IMG/VR virus record: IMGVR_UViG_3300010163_000002 | Location: 1 to 64,000 of that record | Direction: 5' to 3' (one strand) | Origin: a virus | Lineage: Duplodnaviria; Caudoviricetes | Length of the DNA: 64,000 nucleotides | In this document: piece after piece, positions 25,105 to 62,354 of the stretch | Numbering within the stretch: the stretch's first letter is position 1 | Layout of the letters: each line of letters begins with the position of its first letter | Translations under genes and position numbers: made by a program | Notes under the pieces: model-generated | Told to the model about the DNA's origin: nothing | Database searches by the model: none | What the model saw: the letters and a program-made list of their open reading frames with translations, nothing else

Positions 25105-27903
25105 CTAAATAGACGTTATAAAGAACATAAGCTCTTGCTTCACGATGTCATTATACATAGGAACTATATTACCATCATATTCTCCAGGCTTATGATTTTC
25201 ATCGTCCCAGTCAATAATTTCAAATGATGATGATATAACGGCTCCTATTAACTCTTGTATTTTTTGTTCTATCTTCTGATCATTATACTTAGCTTTAATT
25301 TGTTCATATAACGGATCTATTTCAATACTAAGCATATCCTTCTTACTTATAATTTTTCTTGATGCTAATCTTACAACTCTTCCAGAAACTATATATGGTA
25401 ATATTACCATATTTGATCTTAAGAGTATTCTCTTTGCCGCTATAACCAGTTTAATATAGTCCCTCTGGCTATGAATAGCTTTCATACTTATAGGATCTCC
25501 AAATTCTTTATAGAATAAATATCCAACAAGTTGTTTCTGAAATGGATTAATTACAGACGCTCCGTCTTTTGTCAGTTTTCTCTTAAAATGATTTATCTCT
25601 TCATCAGAAAATGGGCCATACAGAGCTTCAATCTTTTCAATCGTTTTTTCTGCTGATACCTTATTCTGCATTGAAAGAGCTTCATCTTTTTTGTTCAATC
25701 TTGCCTCATATCTCCTGTTGTTCACATGGGTCGTTAATCCATGCAGTTCTCTTATGAACTTCTCTGGTATTTCTCCAGATGTGCAGACTATATCACTAAC
25801 CTTAAAATCACCCAAGGTTACTCTACTATTTGGATTTAAGGGATTCTCACCCGCTCACTTGAGCCCTACTCCTGTTGCCGAATTTCACGGCCCTTCCGGG
25901 GATAGTCGTTGAACGTTATTAGTAATCATATTTATCACAAATATTAATAAATGTCTTTTTGTTTCTTATGCACGATATAAGTGTTGCATACCTAGCTTTA
26001 TTCTTCTTATCCATATTACCATAATCTAATCCTATATAATTCAATACCTCTTTAGTAGAAATTTTTGGATTTGATTCTAAGTATTTGCAGATAATATTTA
26101 TTTGATCATATGATAATATTCTATATACTTTATCCATATTATCAAAATTATATTTGCTAGATATGTGTTTCCAACAATGGCCATTTTTTATATTTTGCAC
26201 TAATCTCCTCATATCACAATTTTCTATTGGAAATATAGAACATATCTGTTTTGTACTGTACCCCTCAGATATTAAATAGCATATATACTCAACTTGCTCA
26301 TTGGTCACTACGCTATTACTTCTATCCTCTCCAAGCGTTATAAGGTTATTGTTCACTGCATGTTGCATATTTTCATTCTTTGTGCACCATTCTAAATTCC
26401 ATAACCAATTATGATATTTTATTCCGTCTTTATGATTTACATCATATAAATTTTCATACGGAATTGGACAAAATGCATTTAATATTACTCTATACAAGCT
26501 AATGCTAAATCCGCCGCCATCAATAGTTGACAGTCTTATAGTAATATAATGGTCCTTATTGTAACTCTTATTCAATGGTATTATATTTCCAGTCGCTAAA
26601 TTATAAACAAAGCCAGAATTACTAACTTTGTAATGTCTTGCTACCATTGGGTACACGCTATATGGGAAGTCTGCCCATACTTCCTTAAAAACAAAATTAA
26701 TAGGATAAATCATCATATCACCACCTTAAGGTTTTAATATGATTACTAATTTTCGCCGCTGATTGGACATTATTTAAACCCTTAGCGCCATATGATCAGT
26801 ATGGCTTTTATTTCAGCATAGGTCATCCTAGAACTTATTTCTGTCTTTCGACTCCTATTATATATAGGCATCTAGGCTTTAGCCCTTCCCAGCTTAAAGT
26901 AGAATTATTCATCACACTGTTACCAGTATAATGCGACCGATAGTTGATCGTATTCCGAATTCTGATCTGCATCTCTCTTTGAACTGCTAAGGCGGAAGAA
27001 TGATAATTCATATTTTATATCTGTAATCTTAAATCCAAGATATTGCCTATTGCTAAAATAGTTAAAGTTGATAATATTCTTATCGTAGCTATATTTTGGC
27101 AATATATTCATGATTATATCAACAACAGAATCCTTTGTATGTGTGGTTGTATTATTACCACGAATTTGATTCTTTATCCATAATGGCCTATCAGGATTCT
27201 TAGACTTATTTACTACAGAAACAGCAGTTTCATAAATCTTATCATAAATATATATTCCACGTTCTTCTTCATATTTGACTATACACATATCAAACAACGC
27301 AAGCATAAAATCCTGAATGTCCTCGGATGATTTGATACAGTGTATGTACATATAATGAGTGGCTAATGGAATATACATATTCATTATAAGTGAAATTTCA
27401 TATAATACTTTTGCGTGTCTATTATTAAACTGCAAATTTGGTGTTCTGTTATTATTTGATGATAACTTCATCAAATAATTATCATCGACAAAATGACTTA
27501 TCTTATAAGTCAAATTCAAATTTCTTATAATATATCTATTAATATCATCCATGAAATTGGCCTTGCTATAGTTTCTAAAATAATCTATATTAAGTTTAAT
27601 CTCATAAATGATCATCAACAACTCTTTATCGTAATCATAGAATTTCTCAAAGTAATTTAAATACTTACAAATATGATCACGTGTCTCATTAGAGTTGTAA
27701 CTACGTTTTGTATTCATAGCGAAATAATTCAGAGATTTCTGATTTTCATCTCCCGCACAGAAAAAGTCTGTAATTGGTAATATAATTTCACCACGAATAT
27801 TTCTAAATATCATATCTTGTTCTGCTATGGGATATTTTTCTGTACCCCATTCATCTACTGGCACATGGTCGGTTTTATTGACCACTCTACACATATCTAT
27901 CAT
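25105..27903 (-). CDS. probable sigma-like promoter-specificity subunit of non-virion RNAP (AR9 gp226/phiKZ gp68-like); intron-split, exons 27903-26947 and 25713-25105, 521 aa spliced
   Basis: Exons join in frame (NSEYD|RYEARL). It lies two genes downstream of the chaperonin, matching the recalled AR9 gp228-gp227-gp226 order; early-type motif upstream. The function is inferred from synteny and size. Confidence 0.6.
25714..26946 (-). mobile_element. group I intron (IA-like) with HNH homing endonuclease
   Basis: P element AAGCTGGGAA, Q AATCAGCGG, R TTCAACGACTA, S GATATAGTCT. P1 CGAU/GUCG with a U.G pair at the 5' splice site; terminal G at 25714. Confidence 0.92.
25919..26716 (-). CDS. intron-encoded NUMOD4-HNH homing endonuclease with C-terminal HTH
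   Basis: EVW....YKVSNSG; VNHKDG.K.HN...NLEW....EN..HA. Confidence 0.9.
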   Translation of the reverse strand: MMIYPINFVFKEVWADFPYSVYPMVARHYKVSNSGFVYNLATGNIIPLNKSYNKDHYITIRLSTIDGGGFSISLYRVILNAFCPIPYENLYDVNHKDGIKYHNWLWNLEWCTKNENMQHAVNNNLITLGEDRSNSVVTNEQVEYICYLISEGYSTKQICSIFPIENCDMRRLVQNIKNGHCWKHISSKYNFDNMDKVYRILSYDQINIICKYLESNPKISTKEVLNYIGLDYGNMDKKNKARYATLISCIRNKKTFINICDKYDY

Positions 27904-27959
27904 TATAAAACCTCCTCTGTTCACAATATATTTATATAGTATACAATCTAAGCAGCTTT

Positions 27960-28751
27960 TCAACCACTGCGAGGACGCTTCATAATAGCCTTCTTTGTTG
28001 TTTTAACTGTCTTAGTCTTGTTTGGTATTCGTGATACAGTAGAAGTTTTTGTTACTGAACTTTTTATTGTTTGTTTAGATTGTAGGGCTTTGTCCTTCCT
28101 TTCTTGTTTTTTAGCTTCGGATTTTGCCTTATTAAGTTTTTCTTGTTCCTTCTGTCTATCTTCTACCTTTTTTGTAGCATGGGTTATTTGATCCAATAAA
28201 GTACGTTTTACATATTTCTTGCCATGATTTTTGAGTATATTTCTATTAAAAAGATTATACTTTTCCATAGTTAAATATGCAAAATACAGCGACTTTACAT
28301 ACCAAATATCGTCTTTAGGATTACGCTCTTTTGCAACGTCTTTCAATGCCCTTGAAGACATCTTGCTTTCCAGATCTTTTATAAATAAATTATGTTTTCT
28401 AAAAGCATGAACAAATGTATAGTAAAATGCCGGATCATTAGAATAGAATTGTACTGCATATTCGCGCAAACTAACATTAGATTTCTTTTTATTTTCAGTT
28501 GTAAATAATCTTATTACTACATCATAATAGAAGTTTGATATTACTTCTGATGGCACCTTGATGTATATGTAATATGAATCGTTAGAGTCATTTGTATAAA
28601 ATACCTGCCAATCTATTTTACCATTTTCTCTAACTAAAACTTTATCAAATTTTGATTTATATAAACTTTTATACATGCCTCTATTGGTAATAACAGAGGC
28701 CCCTCCTGACGGATTGTCTATATATTTATCAAAATTCATTCCGTCTGCCAT
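27960..28751 (-). CDS. conserved hypothetical protein with basic C-terminal tail
   Basis: KVPSE....FYYDVV..., FYSNDPAF; lies between the chaperonin and the sigma-like gene. Confidence 0.65.
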   Translation of the reverse strand: MADGMNFDKYIDNPSGGASVITNRGMYKSLYKSKFDKVLVRENGKIDWQVFYTNDSNDSYYIYIKVPSEVISNFYYDVVIRLFTTENKKKSNVSLREYAVQFYSNDPAFYYTFVHAFRKHNLFIKDLESKMSSRALKDVAKERNPKDDIWYVKSLYFAYLTMEKYNLFNRNILKNHGKKYVKRTLLDQITHATKKVEDRQKEQEKLNKAKSEAKKQERKDKALQSKQTIKSSVTKTSTVSRIPNKTKTVKTTKKAIMKRPRSG

Positions 28752-53444: not shown

Positions 53445-53550
53445 AAATATAGGGAGGGTTTAAACCCTCCCTATAAATTTCTTTAGTAATATATTATAAT
53501 TTTGAATTAAACTAATATAATTTAATAATAAAACAAAGGAGATTTAAATA

Positions 53551-53973
53551 ATGAAATTAACTAAAGAGCAAACAATTGAAGAACATCATAAGATGTGGAA
53601 TTGGATTGCTGAAAATGTGCACGATATAAGACCAACTACAGCAAAACAAATTAAAGAATATTACTTAAAAAATATAAGTTGCTTAAAAGAAACAACTGAC
53701 AATAATTGTTTTTGCCCAGAGTATATTAATGAATTATGCTATAATTGCTCATTATATTGGGGAGCTAAACCGTATAGATGCGTGATTGATAACTGCGTGT
53801 TTTATATAGAGTTCTCAAAGTATATTAGATGTGCTGATTATGTAAAAGCAGCAGATATGGCAAAATTGATAGCAAACTTACCAAAAAGAAAGGATGATAA
53901 TAATGGAATTAACCAGAGAACAGGCTATCGAAGAACACAGAAAAATGTGGAATTGGATTTCCGAGAATATTGA
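53551..53973 (+). CDS. Cys-rich EHRKMWNW-family protein (copy 3)
   Basis: Family motifs; the tail reads about 23 codons into the next gene. Confidence 0.75.
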   Translation: MKLTKEQTIEEHHKMWNWIAENVHDIRPTTAKQIKEYYLKNISCLKETTDNNCFCPEYINELCYNCSLYWGAKPYRCVIDNCVFYIEFSKYIRCADYVKAADMAKLIANLPKRKDDNNGINQRTGYRRTQKNVELDFREY

Positions 53974-54637
53974 AAAAATAGAACCAGATAATATCAGAGA
54001 TATCAAACGATATTATTTGTACAAAATAAGAAAATTAAACGAATCAATAGATAATTACTGCTTTTGCTGCGAATATGATAGTAATGCCATGACATGTTTT
54101 GATGATGCGTGCTTTAATTGCCCACTAATTTGGGGAGATATAGACAGTGAATGTTCCAACGTTGATAGTTTGCATGACATTTTCATAAAAAATGTAAAAT
54201 CTAAAAATTACAATGCAGCATCAAATATAGCAAAACAAATAGCAAATCTACCAGAAAGAAAAAACGCAATATTTAAATTGACCAAAGAACAAGCAATAGA
54301 AGAACACAGAAAAATGTGGAATTGGATCGCTGATAATGTGGAGAATATGCAGGTTACTAAAGTCGATTATATAAAGAAATATTATATGAAGGTAATAAGA
54401 AGAATAAGAGTAAATATAGAAAGAGATTGTTTTTGTTGCGAGTATGCCAAGCAACAATCGCCATTACAAGAAAATATATGCGATTATTGCCCATTGGATT
54501 GTAATAGTAAAGAAAACAATCATATTATTAGTGAAGATTTGTTTGATTACTTTTATAGTAAATGTGTGTCTACTGGGAGATACATTCAGGCATCAAATAT
54601 AGCAAGGCAGATAGCAAATCTACCAGAAAGAAAATAA
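53903..54637 (+). CDS. Cys-rich EHRKMWNW-family protein with two tandem domains (copies 4 and 5)
   Basis: The family motif occurs twice. Confidence 0.8.
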   Translation: MELTREQAIEEHRKMWNWISENIEKIEPDNIRDIKRYYLYKIRKLNESIDNYCFCCEYDSNAMTCFDDACFNCPLIWGDIDSECSNVDSLHDIFIKNVKSKNYNAASNIAKQIANLPERKNAIFKLTKEQAIEEHRKMWNWIADNVENMQVTKVDYIKKYYMKVIRRIRVNIERDCFCCEYAKQQSPLQENICDYCPLDCNSKENNHIISEDLFDYFYSKCVSTGRYIQASNIARQIANLPERK

Positions 54638-55163: not shown

Positions 55164-55866
55164 AGCACATAATTGTTTGTACTATTTAGCAAAAAACGAT
55201 AAAGAATACGAACAAATCATGAAAGAAGGGATAATCCCAACAGAAAAGTGTATCGCAGATATATCTATGGATAAAGAAAAAATCACTCTTTTATGCGAAT
55301 TCAATCAGGTAGGTAAATGGAAAATTCTTGAACAAAAACCAATTGTATTAAGGATATCTAATGTAGCCAAAGAAGATTGCAAAGAAGTTGAGTTGGTTGA
55401 TATTGCTAAAAGACTGATATATGATAGAGTAATATCGCCAGAAAATATTGAAAGGGCGTATGTTTTTACAACGAGAAAACAAATGAAAGAATTGTGTGTT
55501 GCGTACGCAATCGGTCTAAGTATTATTATATCTAATACTATATATCATTATGATAACAATACTCCAGAGCATGAAAAATTTGTTGAATATATTAGTAAAT
55601 CTACAAATAATATTGTCAGTACAATCGACCGATTAGATTATAAGAACAACTGGAGATGGGTAGCTAAAAAATTAAGAGAATATGCGGATGAAGGAAACTA
55701 CACATTCTTAGATACCTACTGCAATAGCGATATTAAACTATATGAGCAGATTACTATGTTCCCAAGAGATGATACTTATGGAGACCGTTGGGTGCTGAGA
55801 AAATGTATTCAGACCGCATTTAAAAATATGCTTAATTTAGATACAGGAGGGTATACAAAATGTTAG
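55156..55866 (+). CDS. hypothetical protein, N-terminus weakly ART/KptA-fold-like
   Basis: I.KEGI.P...VL.I...I.PENI pattern. Confidence 0.5.
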   Translation: MSKAHNCLYYLAKNDKEYEQIMKEGIIPTEKCIADISMDKEKITLLCEFNQVGKWKILEQKPIVLRISNVAKEDCKEVELVDIAKRLIYDRVISPENIERAYVFTTRKQMKELCVAYAIGLSIIISNTIYHYDNNTPEHEKFVEYISKSTNNIVSTIDRLDYKNNWRWVAKKLREYADEGNYTFLDTYCNSDIKLYEQITMFPRDDTYGDRWVLRKCIQTAFKNMLNLDTGGYTKC

Positions 55867-56297
55867 TTGTACAAGTACCATATACAGTATTAATTCCTAA
55901 AGATTATGTTAGCAATCCTTATCTTATAAAGCTTAAGGGAAATGAGTATATTAAAATCTCAACAATAGTTACTATCAATAATGATGAACTTAATAATTAT
56001 TATCAATTAAATGGAGATCTTGCTATACCATTTATAGTGTATAATAATTGGATGCTTAAGTGCATGCCTGAAATAGCTAAAATGTTTGGATCGATATCTA
56101 ATAAGGATATAAATATTGATGAGATAGTAGCACTGGTAAATAATTTTACTGTAATTAATATAAGTGATTCATATAAGATAGAAGATATGCTTCCTGTTCA
56201 AGAATTTAGAAATGCATTTGCAATGGCCATGATGGGCGATGTGTTATATAATTATATTATGGAAAAGTACGCTTTACCATATATAGACAAAAAATAG
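55860..56297 (+). CDS. hypothetical protein (paralog pair, A)
   Basis: NYY.L.GDLAIPFIVY.NW shared with the next gene. Confidence 0.7.
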   Translation: MLVVQVPYTVLIPKDYVSNPYLIKLKGNEYIKISTIVTINNDELNNYYQLNGDLAIPFIVYNNWMLKCMPEIAKMFGSISNKDINIDEIVALVNNFTVINISDSYKIEDMLPVQEFRNAFAMAMMGDVLYNYIMEKYALPYIDKK

Positions 56298-56330
56298 AAA
56301 TATACTTTTAAAAATACAGGAGGGCACAAA

Positions 56331-56744
56331 ATGTTAAATTTATCAACCCCATATAAAGTAATATTCTCAAAAAAATATTATATACAACAACCTGCATTTA
56401 TATGGTTACACGATAATACGTACCATATTTTAGGAGGAATTCATTCGTTAGATATATGTCCTACAGATGATAACTATTATACATTAACAGGTGATTTAGC
56501 TATACCATTTATAGTATACCATAACTGGTGGTTGGAGGGCTCTATATCTAGAGTAAAGAATTCCACAGAACGCGATGAAAAATTATTATATGTGCTTAAA
56601 GAAAATATTATAGATATAGGAAACGCATATAATATAATTGATATAGTACCAGAAATAGCTACGTATGAAGATCCTGATGTTGCATATATTTATCTTGCTT
56701 ATATGATAGAAAAATATTTATTACCGCATATAAACAAAAAATAA
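56331..56744 (+). CDS. hypothetical protein (paralog pair, B)
   Basis: Same motif; similar ATACAGGAGGG leader. Confidence 0.7.
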   Translation: MLNLSTPYKVIFSKKYYIQQPAFIWLHDNTYHILGGIHSLDICPTDDNYYTLTGDLAIPFIVYHNWWLEGSISRVKNSTERDEKLLYVLKENIIDIGNAYNIIDIVPEIATYEDPDVAYIYLAYMIEKYLLPHINKK

Positions 56745-56854: not shown

Positions 56855-57143
56855 TTACTTTCTAATATACCCGTTGTTTTCCAGGTATATTAGAATACGT
56901 CTTGTGTATTTAGCGCAAGACATATTAAATGCCTTAGCCGGATACACATTACCACGGGTTACATCGAGAAGACTGGAAGCGAACCAGTCCTGGAAGTCCG
57001 CTGCCTGCTCCTCGATTTCTAGCATAGCATCAGTATGCTTGGTATTTCCGCCAAGCATAAGCAGAGCTTTGTTGGCGGTTGCTTTGAAGCTCATATGTGG
57101 ACTTTACGAGTTCCTTATTCATTGTGCTCATTGTTGTATTCAT
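56855..57143 (-). pseudogene. small early gene, apparently frameshifted
   Basis: The SD-led ATG at 57143 gives 37 aa; an overlapping 79 aa frame (57094-56855) has no well-spaced SD. Confidence 0.4.
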
Positions 57144-57233
57144 AGTATCCTCTTTCTCACTTATAACGGGCTTCAAGCGACTACCCGATTTTATTTTTAT
57201 ATAATAATATCTTCTATTCACCATTATAATATA
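57141..57233 (-). promoter_or_regulatory. duplicated early promoter plus structured 5' leader (copy 1)
   Basis: Near-identical to 58580-58675; TATATTATAA motif; pseudoknot-capable CGGGU/GCCCG and UCGCUU/AAGUGA. Confidence 0.8.
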
Positions 57234-58405: not shown

Positions 58406-58582
58406 CTACATTATTCTGCCCATGCTCTGAAGAGTATGAATAATGCTATACTTAAGTTTAACCAGTTCCAATCGCATCTTTAATGCGAAAAGAGGGTTAG
58501 TAATTTTACACCTCCATACCAGAAGCGCAAGGCGAAGATCAAAGATCTTCTTTTCTAAATTTATTTTATTTAATTTCATCAT
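58406..58582 (-). CDS. 58 aa basic early protein
   Basis: AAAGAGG SD inside the duplicated leader. Confidence 0.6.
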   Translation of the reverse strand: MMKLNKINLEKKIFDLRLALLVWRCKITNPLFALKMRLELVKLKYSIIHTLQSMGRIM

Positions 58583-58675
58583 AGTATCCTCTTTCTCGCT
58601 TATAACGGGCTTCAAGCGACTACCCGATTTTATTTTTTATTTATATTATTATCTTCTATTCACTATTATAATATA
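58580..58675 (-). promoter_or_regulatory. duplicated early promoter plus structured 5' leader (copy 2)
   Basis: As copy 1, with AAGCGA in the second stem. Confidence 0.8.
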
Positions 58676-58767: not shown

Positions 58768-61700
58768 GTGAACTACGAACCAACAATGGTTGGAAGACCT
58801 ATGAATACTGCAAATCCGTATAATAACGTCGTTGTTAACAGACAAGCTGTATACCCTGGCGGGCCTCCACCGCCAAGACAAACATATTCAAAACCGCAAA
58901 CTATAAGAACATTATATGCTCAAAAAACAACTAAAAATAAGAGTTTCTTGGATATGCACCATTATCTTGAATCTATAGGAATTAAGAATAATGAATTCAT
59001 GCTAACTCTTATAGATCCAGATCTTGATGGTATTGACCCTCATGATCCTAACCTCAATGCTTATTATAAACAGAAAATTTTGCGAGAATGCCTATGCAAC
59101 TATTGGTAAAAATGAAATGCTCCGTATTATGGTAACATAGTGCGTGCACCTTACTGAATTGCTGGGAAAGGCTAAGAGCTTCAATGCCTATTAATAGGAG
59201 TCGAAAGACAGAAACAAGTTTGAAGATGGACTATGCTGAAATAAAAGCTATATATCTATATAGTGCTAAAGTCTAATTAATGTCTAATCAGCAGCCAACA
59301 GATTAGTACTACAATACCGAAGGAAGTACTAATTATGGAAATTATTGGTAAACGATTTGAAAGTAATAATTTTGGATTCTTTAAAGTTATTGATACAGTA
59401 GATAAGATAAAATGTAAAGAGCCTAGATACCTTATACAATTTGAAAATACTGGATCTTATAATACGGCCTCGTATAATTCAATACGGCACGGAAGAGTAA
59501 AAGACAGGTATGCTCCAATTGTAGCAGGTGTAGGATTTCTTGGAGATTATGATGGTAAAATAACAACAGATCCGTTTATTTATGGTTTATATAGGCCATG
59601 GAATGATATGCTGAATAGGTGTTATAATGTTACAGATGAAGATTATCCAGAATATGGAGCTATAGGAATTAGAGTTGATAAAGCGTGGTTTAATTTTGGT
59701 ACATATTTGCATGATGTGCAACAATTGCCAGGTTTTAATCTTAAGCTAAAATACTGGGATATTTATCAATTGGATAAGGATTATTTGCAGCTTAATATTC
59801 CTAAATGTAACAGAATATACTCTAAGCATACTTGTATATGGATTTCAAAGCATGATAATATTTTGCTTATGAATACAGAAAATGGTAATAAAACTGGCAT
59901 GATGGGTATAGTGGAAAGAAGTGGGGGATACGTGGTTAGATATCGTAATAAATCATACGGTAAATACGACAATCTAATAGCTGCAGGTAATGCTTATAAT
60001 AATCTATTCCCATTATTAACAAGATCTAATCCGCATGCAAACATATTCATTCCAAATAATGTGCCATATATACCTCAAGAGGAAATTATTAAGCACTTAA
60101 TGAATCCAAAAGAATTATGTAAAATCGTTCAATAAATACTATTGGTTGGTTCAACGACTATCCGTGATGAGTGTAGCGGAGTAGGGCCCAAGTGGGTGGG
60201 TGAGAATCCCTTAAATCCAAGCGGTAAGGCGTCCATTATATGGATGAAGATATAGTCTCAGCATATGGAGAAATTCCATAGTATTTATTTTAATATAACG
60301 TAATATAACGAATTACGGTAAGAATTAATTTCATAAGGGAATGTGTAAGAGTACCATCATCAGGCAGACCTATGATGTATAAACTTACACGAGCTAATCT
60401 TGCATTAAATTTCTGTATGAGTTTAAACCTTAATGTATTTGAGGAGATACCTCGACAGCAGGGTAAAACAGTTTCTGTAGCAATTAGGCTACTTTATGTA
60501 TATAATTTTGGAACTACCAACACCAAGATGGCATTCCTGCATAAGGGTATGGATGGTGCTAAGGATAACTTACAAACTCTTAAAGATATCCGTGATATGC
60601 TCCCTCCGTATCTTATTATGAAAGAACGAGTAATGCCAGACGGTAAAGTAGATAAAGGTCGTAATAATACTACGGATATACTTAATCCATTTAATAATAA
60701 CTCAATTAAAACATTTGCATCCGCAACCAATAAAGCTAAAGCGGCATCATTACTTAGAGGTAAGTCCCTTAGCACTATATGGTACGATGAGTACGGATTT
60801 TTACCATATAATGATGTAATTTATATGAATGCTGCTCCTGCATTTAAAACAGCTTCAGAAATAGCTAAAAAGAATGGAACTCCTCATGGTATTGTAATTA
60901 CTACAACACCTGGATTTATGACTACAAATGAGGGTAAAGAAGCATATTCAATGAAAGAGATGGCTACTAAATTTAGCGAATCTTGGTACGATTTGAAATA
61001 TGCCGAGCTAATGCAAATCATAAATGCCAATACAAAATCAGATTTTGTATACATTAAATTTACCTACCAGCAACTCGGATGTAGCGAGCAATGGTTTGCT
61101 GAAGTAAGTAAACTTCTTAAGAATAGTTGGCCTGACATAAGGCGAGAGATTTTGCTTGAGTGGGCTACTGGAGTGGAAAACTCTCCATTTAAAGAAGAAG
61201 ATCTTGATACTATATCTGGTCTTATCAGACAACCTATAAGTATTACATATCTACTTGGTAAATATAGATTTGAAACTTATCTGCAGGCTGATACTAGAAC
61301 ATATCCCCCTCTTATTGGAGTCGATGTTGCTAGTGGATATCGGCAAGATAGTTCGACTATTACTGTAGTAGATTCTTTAACAACTAAAGTTCTTGGATGT
61401 ATGAATTGTAACTATATAAGTACAATCGATTTGGCAAGATGCATTGAATTCATTGTTAAGAACTGGATGCCGAATTCGATTATCAATGTTGAGAGGAACG
61501 GGGGTTATGGTTCAACAGTTATAACTAAGCTTGTTAAGATGGGCTTAAGGAAAAACTTATATTATGAGATAAAAGATGTCGTAACAGAAGAAAAACAAGA
61601 CGGTATTCATTCATATAAACAGAAAACAAGAATGAAAGTATATGGCCTTACGTCTACCAAAGCAATAAGAAATACTCTAATTGATATTCTTATTGAGCGA

Positions 61701-62354
61701 GTTGAGAGTCATAAAGATAAAATCGTATCTCCTATAATTTATAATGAGCTGCTTGGAATGGAGATTAAACGTAATGGTAAAGTCGAGCATTCTGATAGCA
61801 CTCATGATGACCAGGTATTTTCTATGTTAATGGCTTTATATATGTGGTATGAAGGCGTTAATATGGGAGAACGCTTTGGCATGAAAAAGACATCTATTAG
61901 AACAGATGAAGATATAGACGAACAAGTAGATTACTACAATGATGATTCAGTAGAGATAGTTGGGTCTTTTAATCAGGAAGATGATTTAAATACAGAAATT
62001 GAAAAGGATCTTGATAATGCTATTAAAGCTGGCGGTATGCAGATGCAAGAATTTCTTGATCAACGTAGAGCTCAAGAGCAAGCTCAATTTAAATCATTAA
62101 TTCTTTCTCCTATAGGAGAAAGAGCTTATAGACAAAAATATAATATTCCAGATAACGTACCAATAACAAATTTTGTTGGAGAGCAGAATAATTTCAACGT
62201 CCCAGATTCTGTTCTTCTAGGATTTTATAACAATAATAACGGTAATCCGTATTTTGAAAGCGAAGTACCGTTTAATAGATTAGCCGTATCAGAAGATCAA
62301 GCTTATATGCTTGAAGATGATGGATATAGATACCAGGATCATTTTAATTTCTAA
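58768..62354 (+). CDS. terL: terminase large subunit; intron-split, exons 58768-59107 and 60328-62354, about 788 aa
   Basis: PRQQGKT Walker A, WYDE Walker B, ITTTPG, IGVDVA.G...D.S, VERN, HDD. The exon join gives NYWYFIRE. Confidence 0.92.
59108..60327 (+). mobile_element. group I intron (IA-like) with homing endonuclease; apparent terminal A
   Basis: P AATTGCTGGGAA, Q AATCAGCAG, R TTCAACGACTA, S AAGATATAGTCT; 7-bp P10 AUGAAAU/AUUUCAU. Confidence 0.9.
59335..60135 (+). CDS. intron-encoded HNH-like (beta-beta-alpha-Me) homing endonuclease with AP2-like tail
   Basis: W..ML.RCY....Y..YG..GI.V...W..F, LDKD, YS..TC.W....N. Confidence 0.8.
   Translation: MEIIGKRFESNNFGFFKVIDTVDKIKCKEPRYLIQFENTGSYNTASYNSIRHGRVKDRYAPIVAGVGFLGDYDGKITTDPFIYGLYRPWNDMLNRCYNVTDEDYPEYGAIGIRVDKAWFNFGTYLHDVQQLPGFNLKLKYWDIYQLDKDYLQLNIPKCNRIYSKHTCIWISKHDNILLMNTENGNKTGMMGIVERSGGYVVRYRNKSYGKYDNLIAAGNAYNNLFPLLTRSNPHANIFIPNNVPYIPQEEIIKHLMNPKELCKIVQ

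Follow-up and report, generated by a model that had tools for sequence, protein, structure and literature searches.

Apparent replacement of the terminal guanosine by adenosine in a group I intron of a phage terminase gene

The group I intron that interrupts the large terminase gene of the phage genome analyzed here appears to end in adenosine, at a position where a guanosine, omega-G, is regarded as universal among group I introns and essential to their mechanism. At the level of sequence comparison we consider this observation confirmed as real and not a product of chance, because intronless relatives fix the exon junction independently and because the A aligns with the omega-G of eight introns inserted at the same site. 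The element is quite probably a mobile IA2-like intron that would be removed by two-step splicing with A60327 at the 3' splice site. The same terminal base recurs at this site in related phages, and on that ground this type of ribozyme probably does without the customary final G when it joins exons.

The interrupted terminase gene and its intron

The window, meaning the whole stretch of 64,000 nt that was analyzed, is the start of a single contig of 248,905 bp (32.7% G+C) whose relatives are uncultured jumbo-phage contigs of 150 to 310 kb. The 248,905-bp genome holds one copy of the terminase gene and two introns of this IA2-like family, namely, the one in the terminase gene and a sister intron. 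The features discussed below are as follows.

58768..59107, + strand: terminase large subunit exon 1 (PHROG 32359 and phrog_2 matches; homologous to the N termini of full-length relatives)
59108..60327, + strand: group I intron, IA2-like, 1220 nt, with an ORF in the P6 loop (R/S core elements; helix covariation in the family)
59112..59121, + strand: internal guide, in which 59112-59118 pairs with exon 2 (P10) and G59119-U59121 pairs with GGU 59105-59107 (P1)
59123..59144, + strand: P2 hairpin with a GUAA loop
59149..59154, + strand: 5' strand of P3 (partner, 60224-60229; compensatory changes among relatives)
59160..59166, + strand: 5' strand of P4, the P element (partner, the Q element at 59286-59296)
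59335..60135, + strand: putative intron-encoded HNH endonuclease ORF, 266 aa (phrog_2081, E = 4.4e-39, residues 5-186)
60149..60160, + strand: R element and 5' strand of P7, with G60156 as the guanosine-binding G
60161..60223, + strand: structured P7.1/P7.2 insertion of 63 nt between P7 and P3'
60231..60245, + strand: P8 hairpin
60248..60258, + strand: S element and 3' strand of P7, with C60257 paired to G60156
60263..60281, + strand: P9 hairpin
60299..60317, + strand: last hairpin (P9.2-like)
60318..60327, + strand: 10-nt 3' tail, with A60327 as the terminal (omega) nucleotide
60328..62354, + strand: terminase exon 2 (PHROG 32359 and phrog_2 matches; Walker A)
25714..26946, - strand: sister intron of the same family, with omega-G and an HNH ORF at 25919-26716

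Gene callers split a terminase with this intron into two ORFs. Here one ends at 59109 and the other spans 60372-62354, and both match PHROG 32359 and phrog_2; a Pfam search returned no match for exon 1, exon 2, or the intron ORF. The frame of exon 1 is open from 58738, and translation presumably starts at the GTG at 58768, behind AGGAGG. The exon ends in AAC TAT TGG T (CNYW plus a T), and the TAA stop that closes its ORF at 59109 sits right at the intron start. Exon 2 begins with AT TTC ATA AGG GAA, in frame with a 660-codon ORF that ends at 62354, and contains a Walker A motif (PRQQGKT) that is conserved among homologs. The intron ORF is assigned as a putative nuclease from its match to the phrog_2081 profile over the nuclease region, and phrog_2081 is also the PHROG of intron endonucleases in Bastillevirinae phages (PMC11878797).

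The P, Q, R, and S elements of the group I core were located in the window together with P3, P4, P8, and P9. Assignment to subgroup IA2 follows from the P7.1/P7.2 insertion and the extended domain 9 (hairpins 60263-60281 and 60299-60317), IA2 introns being characterized by P7.1/P7.2 between P7 and P3' and by an extended domain 9 with P9.1/P9.2 (PMC4227781). When seven ORF-less introns from the same insertion site were folded jointly with RNAalifold, P1, P2, P3, P4, P5, and P8 were recovered, with compensatory changes in 33 of 54 pairs. The P7 helix is confirmed by the relative L052 (1931-2311, minus strand), where GACUA/UAGUC has become GACCA/UGGUC, a compensatory change of U-A to C-G that keeps the G-binding G-C pair. 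A search of the window with Rfam RF00028 gave no group I match at either the gathering or the E-value threshold; in the window the HNH ORF interrupts the Intron_gpI model. The ORF-less relative L013 matches that model over its full length (25.8 bits, E = 1.4e-4), against a gathering threshold of 50, and five relatives searched at the gathering threshold gave no match. The 3' half of the intron is ~80% identical to intron DNA from Bacillus phages of the SPbeta type (bnrdF region) and from some Staphylococcus phages.

P1 is limited to 3 bp (GGU/GCU) and an A-U extension, with the U-G wobble at the 5' splice site present. P10 is a perfect 7-bp helix (59112-59118 with 60328-60334) adjoining the U59107-G59119 wobble, just as the initial annotation had described it. 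In this intron family P1 (in the window, within 59105-59121) is unusually short, and its combination with a 7-bp P10 is the reverse of the usual balance. The canonical guanosine-binding pair of P7, likewise said earlier to be kept, is G60156 (in GACTA, 60156-60160) with C60257 (in TAGTC, 60253-60257), and C60155 is bulged.

The sister intron interrupts an uncharacterized gene, whose intronless relatives read SEYD|RYEARL across the insertion point. From that reading its 5' splice site lies after GAU at 26947, 24 nt upstream of the apparent end of the ORF (ALYW, then a stop), and the ORF at 26920-27963 therefore carries a false tail of 8 residues. Further introns of the family occur at other terminase sites (L013:684-2071, L031 from 4597, and L070:1440-1560); one of the other homing sites lies in the Walker A codons (IPR|QQGKT) and another after ASILRGR. 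Their presence accounts for the many exon-only proteins of ~606 aa returned by the protein search. This terminase family is a hot spot for introns with at least three homing sites.

Two other features of the window lie upstream of the terminase gene. A 92-nt direct repeat, 84% identical between its copies at 57140-57231 and 58579-58670, occupies two noncoding gaps; its minus-strand reading closes with a ribosome-binding site and an ATG before small ORFs, and it resembles a promoter and leader, with a conserved hairpin, shared by two leftward genes. Tandem paralogous small genes (53547-54634 and 55860-56744) comprise three units of ~370 nt with 73 to 87% identity and two genes of 137 to 145 aa.

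Position of the exon junction

About 45 full-length intronless homologs (705 to 804 aa, down to ~50% identity) read C-N-Y-W-[YF]-[FY]-[IL]-R-E across the insertion point with no variation in length, and ~36 intronless loci read TGG TAT or TGG TAC followed by TTC at the junction. Only the join 59107|60328, or its equivalent shifted by one base, gives W-Y-F. This is the in-frame NYWYFIRE join of the initial annotation; the exon frames agree with it, and the intronless homologs fix the same junction. Since the intron and exon 2 both start with A, a boundary one base further 3' is also possible, and under either placement the intron ends in A. That base is A because the reading of the homologs is reproduced by these two joins alone. 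We chose the boundaries 59107|59108 and 60327|60328 on the basis of homology with the G-ending relatives and of the U-G wobble rule. The bases in question are T at 59107, A at 59108, G at 59119, and A at 60327 and 60328, so that the proposed 5' splice site after T59107 agrees with both the bases and the exon frame, and the proposed terminal base is indeed A in the assembled sequence. The omega-G of group I introns, which is near-universal though not definitional (ND5-717, below), is thus replaced here by A60327, and intron finders whose rules require a final G would put the junction in the wrong place.

Other boundaries were tried and rejected. An intron ending at G60322 gives TGG TAA, a stop codon. 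Placing the 5' site after G59106 or A59108, or the 3' site after U60326 or A60328, yields another protein or a non-G end anyway. An end at G60318 gives W-L-R-I-N-F, with three inserted residues that the homologs lack. The outcomes at G60322 and G60318 had both been predicted from the sequence and were reproduced.

The last of these sites deserves more attention, as it is possible that the canonical G60318 is the terminal nucleotide after all and that the phage makes a terminase with three extra residues and a change of Y to L. G60318 lies directly 3' of the hairpin at 60299-60317 and permits an in-frame join. In-frame G sites also occur 10 to 13 nt upstream of the terminal A in the window, L013, and L001, and in the relatives they lie 10 nt (L013) and 13 nt (L001/L003) upstream. 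We nevertheless consider use of G60318 improbable. An insertion at this point is found in 0 of ~45 full-length proteins and 0 of ~36 intronless loci, and inserts of this type would vary in length and sequence between lineages. In another A-ending relative, L083, the nearest G leads to a frameshift and a stop. P10 would not abut a splice site at G60318. In the G-ending relatives that have the last hairpin, omega lies 10 to 12 nt past it and aligns with A60327 rather than G60318, and the same spacing of 10 to 12 nt holds for all relatives with that hairpin. The tail of the sister intron measures 10 to 11 nt and ends in G, in line with the earlier remark that its distance from the last stem equals the 10 nt seen here. 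The junction at A60327 remains our preferred placement.

Same-site introns and the recurrence of the terminal A

A survey of homologous introns had been suggested as a check on the terminal base. Protein look-ups and pattern scans yielded twelve further distinct introns at the same site, of which eight end in a G aligned with A60327 (L031, L037, L038, L029, L004, L052/L059, L056, and P0074) and four end in A. The latter come from seven other assemblies, from other metagenomes.

L013: A-ending, 371 nt, no ORF
L001: A-ending, HNH ORF
L002/L003: A-ending, two assemblies, identical over the region compared
L083/L084/L085: A-ending, 324 nt, no ORF, three identical assemblies

The contigs L001 to L004 lack the 5' halves of their introns. 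The intron is optional among close relatives, most of the same-site loci examined being intronless. P0009 was examined as a potential product of splicing in the L001 lineage, but with only 93% identity it was taken to be an intronless relative. A junction-pattern scan of IMG/VR for more A-ending copies returned unrelated genes only, and a scan with the last-hairpin pattern returned one more intron of the family, L070, which interrupts a relative's terminase at the Walker A site and seems to have a terminal G.

P10 covaries with exon 2 in three sequence versions, and its register changes with the exon in L031 and L038. Because helix and exon change together, the register of the 3' splice site is fixed independently of the protein argument. 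P10 spans 7 bp both in the window and in L013. A strong P10 is nonetheless not confined to the A-ending class: the G-ending L031, L038, and L056 have 7 to 8 bp (8 bp in L056), and the A-ending L083 has only 5 contiguous pairs. A-ending and G-ending relatives have the same G-C pair, the same bulged C, and the same J8/7. Among P7, its bulge, J8/7, P10 length, and the presence of an endonuclease ORF, no feature of the same-site relatives covaries with the terminal A. As the P7 pocket, the P7 bulge, and J8/7 are alike in both classes, no compensating change was found.

The A-ending introns do not appear to form a single lineage. Ribozyme identity to the window is 76 to 77% for L056 and L052, both ending in G, and for L013, which ends in A. 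L083 (A) is nearest to L037 (G), at 77%, and is only 59 to 64% identical to the window and L013. A maximum-likelihood tree of the introns, built from about 400 columns with the tail columns left out, needs three changes of the terminal base and places the A-ending introns on at least two separate branches. An approximately unbiased (AU) test rejected the A-ending introns as one clade (p-AU = 0.00025), a value somewhat weakened by the group having been defined once a first tree was at hand. The A-ending lineages also have differing tails. Two origins are conceivable, repeated change of G to A or exchange of 3' ends between introns; under both, the terminal-A state has persisted in diverged, structurally intact ribozymes, and it is not a single recent accident.

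It might still be that splicing never completes, with the terminase inactive or produced as two polypeptides, one from exon 1 and one from exon 2 starting at ATG 60372. A terminal A is expected to cripple ligation, and both the exon 1 stop codon right at the intron start and the in-frame ATG in exon 2 fit the production of two polypeptides. We regard this account as unlikely too, since the terminase gene is the only one in a 249-kb genome and since the exons are intact and under strong purifying selection in five distinct A-ending lineages. For exon 2, dN/dS in the A-ending carriers is 0.08 to 0.09, equal to that of intronless relatives. The first 14 complete codons of exon 2 (60330-60371) match the family consensus, and their differences from relatives are mostly synonymous. 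These codons are conserved, yet the frame has a stop upstream at 60306 and no start codon before ATG 60372, so that they could be translated only after the exons are joined. In L083, moreover, there is no Met at the corresponding place. The evidence indicates that a terminase gene carrying a terminal-A intron is still in use. A base-calling or assembly error at 60327, with G as the true base, is highly improbable: only one assembly of the window genome is on record, but four other distinct introns in seven other assemblies share the A.

Proposed splicing and comparison with known systems

We infer that splicing initiated by guanosine, with a second step that tolerates A, is the most likely mechanism. 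As a mobile intron at the homing site TGGT|ATTTC, the element would splice in the ordinary two steps with A60327 at its 3' end. In the first step, free guanosine in the unchanged G-C pocket of P7 would attack after U59107, which is wobble-paired to G59119. In the second, the 7-bp P10 stacked on P1 would mainly set the 3' splice site; the terminal A would fit the pocket poorly, and the exons would be joined as NYW-Y-FIRE. The second step probably tolerates A since positioning falls mostly to P10, which is stacked on a very short P1.

Changing the terminal G of the Tetrahymena intron to A is said, from the work of Price and Cech in 1988, Michel et al. in 1989, and Been and Perrotta in 1991, to impair exon ligation strongly. 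In that intron the terminal G contacts the G264-C311 pair of P7 as a base triple, P9.0/P7ext is made by the two nucleotides preceding that G, and the splice site is then positioned by P10 (PMC10020454); the 3' splice-site substrate is bound much more strongly with P9.0 and P10 (PMC2588497, PMC10020454). No convincing P9.0 pairing could be assigned from the window sequence.

A broader proposition seems to us evenly balanced. In it, the terminal G gave way to A repeatedly at a single homing site while the pocket stayed as it was, the 3' site would be chosen and ligated largely via P10 and tertiary contacts, and recognition of omega-G would be dispensable here. If true, bacterial and phage introns would have their first example of this kind, and the ORF-less introns of 324 to 371 nt are small enough for direct kinetic and structural work. 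The initial annotation had raised the possibility that ligation is protein-assisted, a suggestion that found no support. Two A-ending relatives, L013 and L083, have no ORF, so that the intron's own endonuclease can be no general requirement. The terminal-A interpretation, which we infer from these comparisons and regard as supported, is directly testable with the small ORF-less relatives. Natural matched pairs exist in the window intron with L056 and in L083 with L037, and such pairs could address second-step tolerance of a non-G nucleotide, hydrolysis at the 3' site, and circle formation.

The engineered Tetrahymena variants G414A and G264A:C311U, known from Michel et al. in 1989 and Been and Perrotta in 1991, reportedly show that an A-U pocket is required for ligation when the terminal base is A. 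They pose the same terminal-A question, but the pocket here stays G-C. Among phage and Firmicute IA2 introns, those of SPbeta bnrdF and T4 td, nrdB, and sunY share with the terminase intron P7.1/P7.2, the extended domain 9, the R/S consensus, and residence in conserved phage genes; they end in G, whereas the terminase intron ends in A. Bastillevirinae phages of Bacillus carry group I introns with phrog_2081 HNH genes in terL and pol, some genes hold several introns, and some of the introns splice only in infected cells (PMC11878797). These resemble the present case in the large terminase gene as host and in the PHROG of the endonuclease and differ in the phage group and the insertion sites; the searched text of that paper (PMC11878797) mentions no terminal-A case. 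Group B IStrons, whose 5' splice site follows G and not U (PMC4227781), offer a parallel as bacterial IA2-like ribozymes that splice in vivo in spite of violating a "universal" rule for splice sites, although their deviation is at the 5' splice site and they are transposon chimeras.

No paper on a group I intron with a terminal A in phages or bacteria came up in the literature searches, and the only published natural omega-A found here is that of ND5-717 in hexacoral mitochondria. The precedent cited in the initial annotation holds: the exons of ND5-717 are perfectly ligated in vivo (PMC6545197, PMC8146996). It is an obligatory intron, inherited vertically and presumed to need host factors (PMC3679873). 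Like it, the terminase intron is a natural group I intron in which a terminal A replaces omega-G inside an essential protein gene. ND5-717 alone, however, is giant, with genes in P8, strictly vertical, and obligatory, and it is removed by back-splicing in mushroom corals; the terminase intron does not belong to that type. The phage introns are instead optional and mobile, measure ~320 to 400 nt without an ORF, and in some cases carry HNH genes, with the ORF in P6, and their terminal A recurs on separate branches. Small mobile phage introns that share one site and one pocket, end in G or in A, and in some cases have no ORF may therefore offer a cleaner system than ND5-717.
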